Assembly: GCA_001795975.1 (NCBI GenBank)
Contig: MGLG01000046.1
Coordinates: forward strand, 1 to 27,992
Direction of reading: 5' to 3'
Origin: Candidatus Yanofskybacteria bacterium RIFOXYD1_FULL_42_10
GTDB lineage: Bacteria; Patescibacteriota; Minisyncoccia; 2-02-FULL-40-12; GWA2-44-9
DNA length: 27,992 bases
Shown: positions 7,575 to 26,256 of the stretch, piece by piece
Layout: every line of letters starts with the position of its first letter
How positions within the stretch are numbered: the first letter of the stretch is position 1
Translations under genes and position numbers: made by a program
Notes under the pieces: generated by a model
The model's database searches: none
Seen by the model: the letters and a program-made list of their open reading frames with translations, nothing else
Told to the model about the DNA's origin: nothing

Positions 7575-7663
7575 TGTCAAAGAACTTAAGAAAAGCATAT
7601 CAAATAATATTGACTTGAGCAATAACTATGATATATTGTCAGTTGCTCGTTAACAATAAGGAG
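7575..7663. promoter_or_regulatory. Overlapping divergent sigma70-type promoters, each followed by a boxA-like 12-mer
   Basis: Minus strand: TTGCTC(7622-7617)-17nt-TATGCT(7599-7594) with TG extension, then AGTTCTTTGACA(7586-7575). Plus strand: TTGACT(7610-7615)-16nt-TATATT(7632-7637) with TG extension, then TGCTCGTTAACA(7644-7655) and SD AAGGAG. Confidence 0.55.
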
Positions 7664-7673
7664 AATCACAAAC

Positions 7674-8222
7674 ATGAACCATGAATTGATGGAAAAATTT
7701 AAGAAAGTAAAAATTCTTGCTCTTGATTGCGATGGGGTTATGGCTCCGCTCTATATAGATACCGGAGTTATTATGGATGTTGAAAATGCTATGAAATTTT
7801 ATAATCGAGAATATAAATATGTAGTTGAAATATCAAGGTTCAATCATCGCGACGGACAGGGGATTGATCTGATGAGGGCGGCTAACATTCCGGTTGTGGT
7901 TATAACTAGACAGAGAAGCGGATACATAGATGCAAGGTGCTTCAAGCTTGGTATTCCATGCGTAAAAGTTGAAGATAAACTAGAGGGACTTAAAAATTGG
8001 CTCAAAAACACGCATCCCAAAGTAAGCTTGAGCGAAGTTTGTTACATGGGAGATGATATCAGCGATATCCATGTTTTACAGGTTGTAGGAGCGCCTGTGA
8101 CTGTGGCTGATGCTATATCTGAAGCTAAAGCTATTGCGGTGCATATTACCCAAAATAAAGGCGGAGACGGTGCCATAAGAGAAGTTTGCTCTCTGATCCT
8201 AAACGCAAGATGTCTTAAATAG
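7674..8222 (+). CDS. KdsC/YrbI-family HAD phosphatase (ulosonate-phosphate phosphatase-like)
   Basis: ILALDCDGV (DxD), RDGQGI, YMGDDISD, GGDGAIREV. Confidence 0.85.
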   Translation: MNHELMEKFKKVKILALDCDGVMAPLYIDTGVIMDVENAMKFYNREYKYVVEISRFNHRDGQGIDLMRAANIPVVVITRQRSGYIDARCFKLGIPCVKVEDKLEGLKNWLKNTHPKVSLSEVCYMGDDISDIHVLQVVGAPVTVADAISEAKAIAVHITQNKGGDGAIREVCSLILNARCLK

Positions 8223-8356
8223 CAAGTGCAAAGTGAGTCAAAGTTTATTCAAGACGAACCAGTTAAAAGCTGGTTTTTTATTTGACTAATTCTAATCTTT
8301 GTGTAATATTTTGGAACAAGTTTGAATGTCCCTTAACAATTAATAGAGGAGTAAAA

Positions 8357-9199
8357 ATGAATACGCAGAATGTCCAAATATTTACTAAGTTTGATCTGAC
8401 TGGCAGGACAGCGATTGTTACTGGCGGTATGGGATTGCTTGGTGCGGAATACGTTAAAACGCTTGCTCTGGCAGGAGCTATCGTTGCGATTTTTGATATT
8501 CAATCTAAATTTCCGCAACACCTTCTGGCGATGATAGAAAAAGGCCACGATATTAAGTCGTTTATGGTTGATATAACCAATCAAGGATCTGTCGGGCAAG
8601 GGTTTGATGAGCTTGTTGAGTCTGTTGGAACGCCAACCATACTTATCAATAATGCTGGTTTGGATTCTCATCCTCATACTTCTATAAGTCAAAATGGTCC
8701 GTTTGGAACTTATTCTGAGGAGACATGGGATGCCGTGATTGATTCTCATCTCAAGGGCGCGTTTTTAATGTCTCGTGAATTTTTCCGATGGTTTATGCTG
8801 TCACATCAAAGCAGGGGTAGCATAATTAATATTTCTTCCACATATGGCTTGGTAAGTCCTGATCAATCAGTTTATGAATACCGGCGCAAGAGGGGTGAAG
8901 ATTTCTTTAAACCCGTTGCTTATTCAGTTGCCAAGGCGGGAATGATTGGATTTACAAAATGGCTTGCCGAATATGGGGGACCCATGGGTATCAGAGTAAA
9001 TGCTCTTGTCCCCGGCGGAGTATTGGCTAATCAAGGGCTGGAACAAGAGTTTATTGAGCAGTATGTAAAAAGAACCATGCTTAAGAGAATGGCTTTGCCT
9101 TCGGATTATAACGAAGCAATTTTATTTCTTGCGTCCGATGCTTCGGCTTATATGACGGGCGCAAATCTTGTGGTTGACGGTGGGTGGACAGCTAGATGA
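8357..9199 (+). CDS. SDR-family oxidoreductase
   Basis: TGGMGLLG, NNAG, YSVAK (YxxxK), IRVNALVPGG, VVDGGWTA. Start placed at ATG 8357 behind SD GAGGAG. Confidence 0.9.
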   Translation: MNTQNVQIFTKFDLTGRTAIVTGGMGLLGAEYVKTLALAGAIVAIFDIQSKFPQHLLAMIEKGHDIKSFMVDITNQGSVGQGFDELVESVGTPTILINNAGLDSHPHTSISQNGPFGTYSEETWDAVIDSHLKGAFLMSREFFRWFMLSHQSRGSIINISSTYGLVSPDQSVYEYRRKRGEDFFKPVAYSVAKAGMIGFTKWLAEYGGPMGIRVNALVPGGVLANQGLEQEFIEQYVKRTMLKRMALPSDYNEAILFLASDASAYMTGANLVVDGGWTAR

Positions 9200-9214
9200 T
9201 TACAAGGAGGATAA

Positions 9215-24427: not shown

Positions 24428-25753
24428 ATGAACCAGCTTTTAAAATTAGAAATTACAATTAAAAATTTAGCAAGCCATCGCTTTATCCACAATGTCGCCA
24501 CTCTTCAGGTCGGCAGTTTTTTGGGTAATTTCATTCAGGCCGGCATTGGTATATTTTTGGCGCGTATGCTGCAACCGGAACGGTTTGGAGAATATGCTTT
24601 GGCGATAGGCATGGCAAGCTTAGCCAGTATTGTTTTGGGTTCCGGCATTCAGGATGCGGCGGCCAATCTTTTGGGCTCTTCTTATGCCCGGAAAGATGCC
24701 GAAGAAACAAAAAATGTACTTGCCTTTACGATTAAGATAACTTTTTTCGCGGCTTTACTTACAATTCTGATTTTGCCGTTCCTGCCTTTTATTTCCCGAG
24801 CGCTTTATAAAGATTTTTGGATCGGAATTTATGCCGCGGTGATTGTTATTGCGTCTATTTTTTCGGTTTCTTTTTTCTCTTTGTCCACCATGGCTTTGCA
24901 GGCCGTGGGAAAAATAAGAGGAATGATGATGCTGGCGGTTTCCGACCAAATTGCAAGATACGGTTTGGCGTTGGTATTTACGGCGGTCGGTTTTGGAGTT
25001 TTAGGTGCGGTGAGCGGACATTTAATTGGAGCGGTTATTTTGTTTTTTGTTTCAGCGGCGATATGGGGATGGGTTCAAAGAAAGGAAACAATTTTGCCTT
25101 CTCTTTGGACGCTTATCAAACACGCGGGGACAGTAAGCATAAAAAAATATTTTGGATTTAGTTTTTGGGTGGCGATAGATCGGAATATGGGCAATCTTTT
25201 TATGGCCTTGCCCGTGGTTCTTACCGGAATATATGTTGCCAATTCCGAGGTAACTTTTTTTAAACTTGCTTTCGGTTTTGTAAATCTTGCTTTGAGCATG
25301 CTTGGTCCTATCTCCGTTTTGCTTAACATGGAATTTCCTAAAATGATGGTTGAGGGCGGCGGAAAATTAGCGAGGAATTTTATCAGGGTGTCGCTCTATT
25401 CTATGGGTTTGTCGGTCTTATTGGTGTTGGGAGCAATTATTACCGCGCCGATTGTTTTTAAATTTTTTTACGGAGTCAACTTTATGCCAAGCGTAAAATA
25501 TGTTTCAGGCCTGTTTGTTTACGGAGCTTTGTTCGGCATCGGCGTAGGCTTGGGACCGATGTGGAGGGCGATTGGTCAAGTCAAAATTTCCATTATAATA
25601 AATCTAATTATTTTAGGATTGGGTATTCCGCTGGGTCTTTGGCTGATAAAATCATACGGTCTTTGGGGCGCGGTGATTATGGTTACTTTATGGTTTTCTG
25701 TGTCTCATCTCGTCTCGTTCTTTTATTTATTGAGGAAATTAAAAACAACCTGA
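24428..25753 (+). CDS. wzx: Wzx-type oligosaccharide flippase
   Basis: 441 aa with many hydrophobic helices. N-terminal GIFLARMLQPERFGEYAL pattern typical of polysaccharide-synthesis flippases. Confidence 0.8.
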   Translation: MNQLLKLEITIKNLASHRFIHNVATLQVGSFLGNFIQAGIGIFLARMLQPERFGEYALAIGMASLASIVLGSGIQDAAANLLGSSYARKDAEETKNVLAFTIKITFFAALLTILILPFLPFISRALYKDFWIGIYAAVIVIASIFSVSFFSLSTMALQAVGKIRGMMMLAVSDQIARYGLALVFTAVGFGVLGAVSGHLIGAVILFFVSAAIWGWVQRKETILPSLWTLIKHAGTVSIKKYFGFSFWVAIDRNMGNLFMALPVVLTGIYVANSEVTFFKLAFGFVNLALSMLGPISVLLNMEFPKMMVEGGGKLARNFIRVSLYSMGLSVLLVLGAIITAPIVFKFFYGVNFMPSVKYVSGLFVYGALFGIGVGLGPMWRAIGQVKISIIINLIILGLGIPLGLWLIKSYGLWGAVIMVTLWFSVSHLVSFFYLLRKLKTT

Positions 25754-25835
25754 TTTGCATAATAATTTCTTAGATTCAACAAGAAAACGCCGATTGCATG
25801 AGTATGTTTTTTGATTGCGAAAATATAATTTAAAA

Positions 25836-25864
25836 AAACACTCATCGTTTTTCGATGAGTGTTT
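25836..25864. terminator. Probable bidirectional terminator
   Basis: AAACACTCATCG-TTTTT-CGATGAGTGTTT (12-bp perfect stem) between convergent genes. Confidence 0.7.
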
Positions 25865-25910
25865 ATCGAAAGCGTCAACCTAAAGAATTGGTGAAAGTTG
25901 TCTTTCCTGT

Positions 25911-26171
25911 TTAGAATTTCGAATGTTTGAGCTCGGCAAGATTTCTATCAAGTTCAGCATGTGTTCTTCCTAAATCAATTCTTTGGCCAGACGGCGAGAT
26001 GGCATAGGCATTTGTTATCATGGTAATTCTATCTTGACCACACGAGGCAACCCCAGTTTCGATATGCACCTCATATCCGCAATCATGACATGTCTGATGT
26101 GATGAACCATTTATCAATGCGGTTTTTAGGATGTGTCCCGAATCTTCATCAACGGAAAGGTGAGTTGACAT
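25911..26171 (-). CDS. Small hypothetical protein (86 aa, CxxC)
   Basis: ATG 26171 behind AAGGGG, with its own promoter and downstream terminator. Contains CHDC. Confidence 0.55.
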   Translation of the reverse strand: MSTHLSVDEDSGHILKTALINGSSHQTCHDCGYEVHIETGVASCGQDRITMITNAYAISPSGQRIDLGRTHAELDRNLAELKHSKF

Positions 26172-26256
26172 TTTTATTTCCCCTTTGTTGTAAAACAATG
26201 ATATTTAGCCGGTTTGGCCGTCATTGCCACTTGGCAAACGGCTCCAGATAAGTAGT

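Follow-up and report, generated by a model that had tools for sequence, protein, structure and literature searches.

A boxA-like 12-mer stands in the short mRNA leaders of about 45 transcription units of Candidatus Yanofskybacteria bacterium RIFOXYD1_FULL_42_10. BoxA recruits NusB-NusE for antitermination, and boxA and the Nus factors are textbook elements of rRNA synthesis and of phage lambda. An initial annotation of the first 27,992 bases of contig C46 (this whole stretch is called the window below) had listed six such 12-mers, each lying between a promoter and a Shine-Dalgarno (SD) sequence. Sequence and context support a real, strand-specific and SD-tied leader element of the boxA type. 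On balance, we favor with moderate confidence the reading that it is a boxA-type RNA element in short mRNA leaders that is most likely read by NusB-S10 and likely acts at translation initiation or when the nascent leader passes from RNA polymerase to the ribosome.

Sites were scored with a position matrix built from all leaders of the genome, in a 12-mer frame that has the G as its first base and is shifted rightward by one base relative to the initial annotation. The features of the window leaders are listed below.

7562..7567, minus strand: SD AAGGAG of the radical SAM gene, from sequence reading (gene product matching Pfam Radical_SAM)
7574..7585, minus strand: boxA-like motif GTTCTTTGACAT in the radical SAM leader, 15.1 bits; SD 6 nt downstream, start codon at 7555
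7610..7637, plus strand: promoter-like site TTGACT-16-TATATT (with TG) of the HAD gene; the end of its -10 box lies 7 nt 5' of the motif G
7645..7656, plus strand: boxA-like motif GCTCGTTAACAA in the HAD phosphatase leader, 16.0 bits; ATG at 7674
7658-7663, plus strand: SD AAGGAG of the HAD gene, 1 nt 3' of the boxA-like motif
8256..8276, plus strand: intrinsic terminator 3' of the HAD gene, from the terminator/promoter scan
8282..8309, plus strand: promoter-like site TTGACT-16-TAATAT of the SDR-transketolase unit, from the promoter scan
8328..8339, plus strand: boxA-like motif GTCCCTTAACAA in the SDR leader, 13.0 bits; SD GAGGAG at 8346-8351, ATG at 8357
11266..11300, plus strand: leaderless promoter TTGATT-17-TAATAT, then 6 nt and the ATG at 11301 of the cytidylyltransferase gene; an example of the majority class that has neither leader nor motif
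12411..12439, plus strand: promoter-like site TTGACA-17-TATTTT (with TG) of the Glyphos_transf-like gene, from the promoter scan
12467..12478, plus strand: boxA-like motif GCTCTTTGTAAA in the leader of the gene at 12500 (Glyphos_transf-like/GT-B-like), 10.7 bits; SD GGGAGG at 12489-12494
13594..13616, plus strand: intrinsic terminator 3' of the gene at 12500, from the scan
13649..13678, plus strand: near-consensus promoter TTGACA-18-TATAAA of the aminotransferase gene, from sequence reading; it failed the scan rule for the second hexamer
13687..13698, plus strand: boxA-like motif GTTATTTGAAAA in the class III aminotransferase leader, 11.5 bits; SD AAGGAG at 13700-13705, 1 nt downstream, ATG at 13713
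26186..26197, minus strand: TGTTTTACAACA, the sixth 12-mer of the initial annotation, before a small gene; 0.7 bits, lacking C5, U7 and U8, and not an instance of the motif

All six strings of the initial annotation are thus found where it had placed them, on the same strands, and five are instances of the motif (10.7 to 16.0 bits), while the sixth is not. A random 12-mer reaches 10 bits with a probability of about 1e-4, so that some 0.02 would be expected in six leaders, as compared to the five observed. The -35/-10 pair that had been claimed upstream of each site was recovered by the scan for the HAD, SDR and Glyphos_transf-like genes and is near consensus for the aminotransferase gene, but the radical SAM promoter is weaker. 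The window units are bracketed in the same way, by terminator, promoter, motif, SD, gene or genes and terminator; they comprise one or two genes, each unit being closed by its own intrinsic terminator. No family matched in an Rfam search of the window.

The rest of the assembly (715 kb in 59 contigs, about 40% G+C, 87.5% estimated completeness) was covered by a crude genome-wide gene calling, which gave 730 open reading frames (ORFs) with the first ATG or one near an SD taken as start. Iterative refinement over the whole genome led to the consensus G-Y-T-C-n-T-T-R-A-M-A-A. Among 61 sites, G2 is invariant (61/61) and C5 (51), U7 (49), U8 (59), A10 (60) and A12 (56) are conserved, while position 6 varies most within the core (29 T, 16 G, 9 A and 7 C).

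The motif is enriched over shuffled and coding background. In 35 kb of leaders, the textbook-boxA pattern TGYTCTTTRAMA, allowing at most one mismatch, gave 15 sense and 3 antisense matches, compared with 1.1 matches in shuffled sequences. Exact GYTCNTTRAMA occurs 11 times in sense and never in antisense direction in the leaders; its density is 0.34 per kb there and 0.008-0.025 per kb in coding sequence. An unseeded Gibbs sampler, given 109 SD-led leaders, converged on GTtCtTTaAcAA in every top run. With a threshold of at least 13 bits, we counted 22 sense and 0 antisense matches in 32 kb of leaders after removing the copies of a dispersed 155-nt repeat, which inflate the intergenic matrix matches and were taken out of the final counts. 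The same threshold gave 27 matches in 1.2 Mb of coding strand, a sequence 37 times larger, which corresponds to a density about 30-fold lower.

The link to the SD is equally clear. The motif was present on 27 of 70 genes with a strong SD (39%), but on only 15 of 351 SD-less genes (4%; Fisher p 1e-13), and never in antisense orientation. Together with the strand count (22 vs 0), this bears out the initial annotation in its view of a boxA-type, strand-specific and SD-tied element that is used gene by gene. A SD, a start codon and an ORF follow within 20 nt downstream of 43 sites of at least 10 bits, and 19 of the 36 top-scoring matches in the whole genome precede such a combination. The layout that recurs throughout the genome is the motif, 0-12 nt, a strong SD and the start codon, with the motif at the 5' end of a leader of 30-45 nt. 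The spacer between motif and SD measures 0-8 nt in 33 of the 43 sites, whereas the motif lies anywhere from 1 to 27 nt 3' of the best -10 box. This combination of tight SD spacing and loose -10 spacing indicates that the element goes with the ribosome-binding site and not with the promoter. SD-led genes inside operons carry it in just 1 of 18 cases. Altogether, the SD-led units with the motif amount to about 6% of all genes in this 0.7-Mb genome and to about a third of the SD-led first genes.

The products of these genes are varied and include PBP1, ClpP, radical SAM enzymes, Tmk, Cmk, IMPDH, a GDPD and a subtilase; many others have no match in Pfam. The initial annotation had regarded the element as a feature of accessory mRNAs; this restriction does not hold, since Tmk, Cmk, IMPDH, ClpP, PBP1 and rpsJ also have it.

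A SD is present on only about a fifth of the genes. Among 322 SD-less genes with an upstream spacer of at least 50 nt, 54 show a TANNNT box at the peak position of -12 from the ATG. Because this -10 box peak is so sharp, most SD-less genes can be read as leaderless mRNAs, which form the main class of first genes. In the window, the genes at 11301, 17402, 24428 and others have a -10 box 5-7 nt 5' of the ATG; examples of leaderless-type starts are the one at 11266-11300 and those 5' of 24364 (minus strand) and of 24428. The initial annotation had remarked that the motif is missing from the SD-less leaders. This is correct, and it is explained by the leaderless state of most of these mRNAs, which leaves no leader to carry the motif. 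Gene callers tuned to SD signals would misplace starts in this genome.

We then compared the motif with the leader of the organism's own 16S rRNA gene, as the initial annotation had suggested. An alignment of 16S leaders from 12 genomes of the order shows a conserved hairpin followed by a block G-n-w-C-n-T-T-n-n-m-A-A-TTT and a boxC-like stretch. This arrangement matches that of the E. coli rrn leader, with the block at the position of the rrn boxA. The organism's own copy, GATCTTTGTAAAT, is located about 90 nt 5' of the 16S gene and about 300 nt from the promoter. Its boxA, GATCTTTGTAAA, is related to the mRNA motif and differs by one base from the window site GCTCTTTGTAAA at 12467. Six bases, G2, C5, U7, U8, A12 and A13, are invariant and common to the motif, canonical boxA and the 16S-leader block of the lineage. 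In the NusB-NusE-BoxA structure, G2, C5 and U8 make key contacts or give phenotypes when mutated (PMC3177189). A pattern close to the motif, GYTCTTTAANA, served to locate boxA sites in gamma-proteobacterial mRNAs (PMC5725501).

Two further observations concern the 16S leader. In most genomes of the family, the conserved hairpin AACCACGATTG...CAATCGTGGTT precedes the boxA block, and in several genomes the loop of the 16S-leader hairpin resembles the motif plus a SD, for example GATTCTTTAAGGAG in the genome studied here. The 23S gene was not found in the assembly, hence there is no 23S leader or spacer boxA to read. The 16S gene itself has large insertions (noted at contig C7:11528-14000) and spans 3,327 nt from AGAGTTTG to CCTCCTTTCT, with a normal anti-SD; one insertion is located near position 1390, just 5' of the 3' end of the gene.

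The motif is also retained in orthologous leaders. For this comparison we used the IMPDH, Tmk and rpsJ leaders, because the radical SAM gene had just one partial relative. In the IMPDH and Tmk leaders, from about 10 genera each, the motif type is kept beside the SD while the flanks have diverged. The rpsJ gene encodes S10, which is NusE. Here, GYTCYTT is found within 35 nt of the start in 22 of 30 genomes of the order, and a relaxed pattern in 26 of 30, as compared to a GYTCYTT rate of 14/517 (2.7%) for genes in general. The core lies between the tuf terminator and the rpsJ start codon. Of all lines of evidence, this copy points most strongly to a boxA. Outside the order the rpsJ copy is rare, with the relaxed core in 5 of 30 genomes from other classes of the phylum. 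In gamma-proteobacteria, rpsJ is a recurrent putative boxA target (PMC5725501). The organism's own tuf-rpsJ spacer (C44:1163-1230, minus strand) contains a terminator-like hairpin followed by GTTCTTTAAAGA 6 nt 5' of the rpsJ ATG, without a good SD.

The complex that acts in rrn antitermination comprises NusB-NusE, NusA, NusG, S4 and SuhB. S10, NusG and NusA are encoded in the organism's own genome, and NusB was found in 39 of 40 relatives, including members of the same genus. The RNA-binding domain of Rho was found in none of the 41 genomes searched. Of the nusB, nusG and rho genes named in the initial annotation, the first is thus present in the lineage and the second in the genome itself, but NusB was not found in the assembly, nor Rho in the genomes searched.

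In the mechanism that we propose, the transcript would begin 1-20 nt 5' of the motif and the SD would follow 0-12 nt 3' of it. The NusB-S10 (NusE) heterodimer, as the reader of the boxA in the rRNA leader, would bind the motif in the mRNA leader as well. Binding would then affect translation initiation, or the step at which RNA polymerase passes the nascent leader on to the ribosome; relief of termination is the less likely effect. We infer the transcription of the motif, its binding by NusB-S10, and both the direction and the mechanism of the effect. An effect on translation is favored because Rho was not found in the lineage and because the units are short and have their own terminators. By analogy, an influence on translation like that at E. 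coli suhB is our best guess. The position of a motif directly 5' of rpsJ suggests a feedback loop, in which the rpsJ copy would serve as sensor and free NusB-S10 would set the output of S10 and of the roughly 45 other SD-led units.

Several points weigh against this reading. NusB was not found in the organism's own assembly, which is 87.5% complete, nor was the SuhB/inositol monophosphatase family in this incomplete genome. The neighborhoods of nusG and nusA in this genome, and of nusB in two relatives, contain no motif of at least 10 bits. Since the matrix was derived from the genome's own leaders, enrichments based on it involve some circularity, from which the fixed-pattern counts and the Gibbs run are free. 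A search for RNA runs that cover the locus gave none, and the 5' ends of the transcripts were predicted from promoter-like hexamers. Two points concern the sequence of the motif. Position 6, a pyrimidine in boxA, is nearly free here, and U6G cripples the lambda boxA in E. coli (PMC3177189). Positions 9-10 are R-A in the mRNA motif (A10 in 60 of 61 sites), but GT or CC in the rrn boxA of the family. Relatives likewise differ at position 6 of their rrn leaders (G in genome G019, A in genomes G003 and G013), and for this reason the factor that reads boxA in this lineage may tolerate variation there. The distribution of the motif is uneven as well. A relative from the same family, of which 400 kb were examined, has it in just 6 of 58 SD-led leaders. 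The strict pattern yielded about 72 matches in 40 relatives against about 30 in the control, but in 150 genomes of the phylum the strict pattern combined with GGAG gave about 117 matches vs about 91 in the reversed control. This ratio of just about 1.3 means that the layout is patchy and strong in some genomes, such as the one studied here (G000, 9 vs 2) and G187 (9 vs 0). In G187, a 16-kb stretch (C1:22789-38688) contains seven boxA plus SD leaders, three of them identical (GTTCTTTGACAAATCAAGGAG), and resembles an island of repeated leader cassettes.

One of the two roles originally proposed was that of a classical boxA: the motif would load Nus factors and make RNA polymerase faster or termination-resistant, or allow chaperoning of the nascent RNA. 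The resemblance to the rrn boxA, the presence of NusB, NusG, NusA and S10 in the lineage, and the location near the start of the transcript, where loading sites sit, all agree with it. However, with no Rho found in 41 genomes and with window units of one or two genes that end at strong intrinsic terminators of their own, which must still work, there is little left for antitermination to act on. The motif is also tied to the SD and not to the promoter, and the leaders show no boxB-like hairpin; as the motif starts 1-27 nt after the -10 box, most of them have no room for one. The antitermination role proposed in the initial annotation is weakened accordingly, and we consider it unlikely; its alternative, translational control of the suhB type, is still plausible.

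About equally unlikely, in our estimate, is that another single-strand RNA binder (a cold-shock protein, an S1-like protein or a lineage-specific factor) uses the motif as a translation enhancer or standby site on the minority of mRNAs that need 30S-type initiation. Candidates are available, since a cold-shock-domain protein (C42:4531-4734) and a four-domain S1-like protein (contig C34) are encoded in the genome. The motif is U-rich and then A-rich, lies directly 5' of the SD, where enhancers are located, and is confined to SD-led genes in a mostly leaderless genome. Bacillus CspB, moreover, prefers GUCUUUA-like heptamers. On the other hand, the 12-nt span of conservation, in which G2 never varies and A10 and A12 are conserved, fits an extended boxA better than a cold-shock site of 6-7 nt. 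The copies in the rrn leader and before rpsJ would be predicted for a Nus site but not for an enhancer, and the organism's own rpsJ has the motif without a good SD.

A DNA-level element, i.e. a repressor operator or a promoter-proximal pause signal just past the start site, is very improbable. The motif does lie 1-27 nt past the -10 box, where repressors and sigma-dependent pauses act, and a G/C variant of its 3' half spells TTGACA, but it is non-palindromic and strictly oriented (22 vs 0), its distance is variable to the promoter and tight to the SD, and the copy in the rrn leader is about 300 nt away from the promoter. We give slightly less credit still to masking of the SD, in which the pyrimidine core UUCUUU would pair with AAGGAG in the manner of a fourU-type thermometer or as a general attenuator of translation: six pairs, including two G-U pairs, are possible across a loop of 4-16 nt, and on average 29% of the SD bases are predicted to pair with the motif, but the predicted unpaired probability of the SD is 0.46 with the motif vs 0.41 in SD-led leaders without it, the motif leaders are less structured (-6.0 vs -9.1 kcal/mol), pairing does not explain invariant G2 and conserved A10 and A12, and the rpsJ and rrn copies have no SD partner.

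Two other candidates were rejected. As the -35 box of a leaderless start, the motif would be about 15 nt too close to the ATG (mode of the distance 13-15 nt). Pairing with 16S rRNA gave best matches (10-11 of 12, G-U allowed) equal to those of shuffled motifs. A decoy-RNA arrangement was also looked for, but no convincing cluster of at least 3 motif matches within 250 nt was found in the assembly.

If NusB-S10 is indeed the reader of the motif, a broader proposal can be made, which we regard as tentative and rather doubtful: NusB-S10 could be a global translation governor in a Rho-less, mostly leaderless bacterium, with one boxA in each leader tying a third of the SD-led units, S10 included, to the amount of free S10 and NusB and thereby to ribosome synthesis. 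The units that might come under such control, with the same reservation, are envelope, protease, nucleotide-salvage and sugar-modification genes as well as S10 itself.

The motif-bearing genes of the window encode a radical SAM enzyme, a HAD phosphatase, an SDR with a transketolase, a Glyphos_transf-like transferase and a class III aminotransferase. They are part of a nonulosonic-acid-type sugar locus that also has NeuB and cytidylyltransferase genes. In a sample of 300 genomes of the phylum, the radical SAM gene (window 5831-7555, B12-type) has a single partial relative. The corresponding part of the sugar locus is therefore rare and was probably acquired, although it displays the host-style layout of promoter, motif and SD. 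A large GC-rich inverted repeat was noticed at 26342-26481 of the window, between the small gene and the following ORF.

The 155-nt repeat mentioned above is intergenic and occurs in at least 20 full or partial copies of 88-100% identity, with internal hairpins and the 3' end GCTCGCTAAAAT. It looks like a miniature inverted-repeat transposable element, and several copies are located just 5' of apparent tRNA genes and of the 16S rRNA gene. Copies were found at 11155-11262 of the window (with an internal deletion), at C46:30544-30760, in the 16S leader (C7:14139-14328) and in at least 20 other places. The 3' end is boxA-like, with 13.6 bits; apart from C55:3304-3600, this boxA-like end is not linked to a SD. 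The features of the genome fit a bacterium of the candidate phyla radiation (CPR; Patescibacteria), and DNA of this organism has been detected in groundwater and soil metagenomes.

A boxA in cellular mRNA is known from one well-studied case, suhB, and from a few predictions per genome. If NusB-S10 reads the motif described here, gene expression would be influenced by Nus factors independently of Rho, and ultra-small, uncultured bacteria with few transcription factors would possess a simple global control by which a class of genes is coupled to ribosome production. Should the governor proposal be true as well, a factor whose known targets are otherwise rRNA and a few mRNAs would serve an entire regulon. 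On the practical side, the motif and the leaderless signature improve the calls of start codons and transcription units in CPR genomes, and the motif provides short RNA/protein pairs that can be tested in vitro without culture.

Among the known systems, the rrn boxA shares G2, C5, U7, U8, A12 and A13 with the motif, and the 16S leaders of the lineage have a related block with a boxC-like stretch. The mRNA copies differ from it in having no boxB-like hairpin, in adjoining a SD and in preceding short protein-coding units with terminators; they also have R-A at positions 9-10 instead of the GT or CC of the family's rrn copies. The boxA of lambda nutL and nutR has the same core for recognition by NusB-NusE, and binding at nutL also represses translation of N (PMC5725501). 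There, however, the phage N protein and boxB are needed, and nothing comparable was seen here.

The closest parallel is provided by the boxA of suhB in E. coli and Salmonella and by further putative boxA sites, among them rpsJ, in mRNAs of gamma-proteobacteria (Baniulyte et al. 2017, PMC5725501), so that a boxA beside a SD is already known in mRNA; we found no paper linking boxA with the bacteria studied here, in agreement with the initial annotation, which had considered the element possibly undescribed in this lineage. The consensus is nearly the same, GYTCTTTAANA there and GYTCnTTRAMA here, but just 2 sites of our genome match the strict published pattern, because positions 5 and 8 (in the numbering of PMC5725501) are relaxed. 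In E. coli suhB, where boxA is located 6 nt 5' of the SD, translation is repressed by the Nus complex, which probably keeps the leader looped on RNA polymerase; Rho acts only afterwards (PMC5725501). Both cases have a short 5' untranslated region and few nucleotides up to the SD (6 nt in suhB, 0-8 nt in most sites here), and in both groups of bacteria a copy precedes the Nus-factor gene rpsJ. They differ in that Rho completes the repression of suhB, whereas it was not found in any of the 41 genomes of this lineage, and in that no SuhB was found in the incomplete genome studied here. They also differ in scale: for gamma-proteobacteria, 0-7 putative sites were reported in each genome of 4-5 Mb, with 'only a few regulatory targets' (PMC5725501), as compared to the roughly 45 sites in 0.7 Mb described here.

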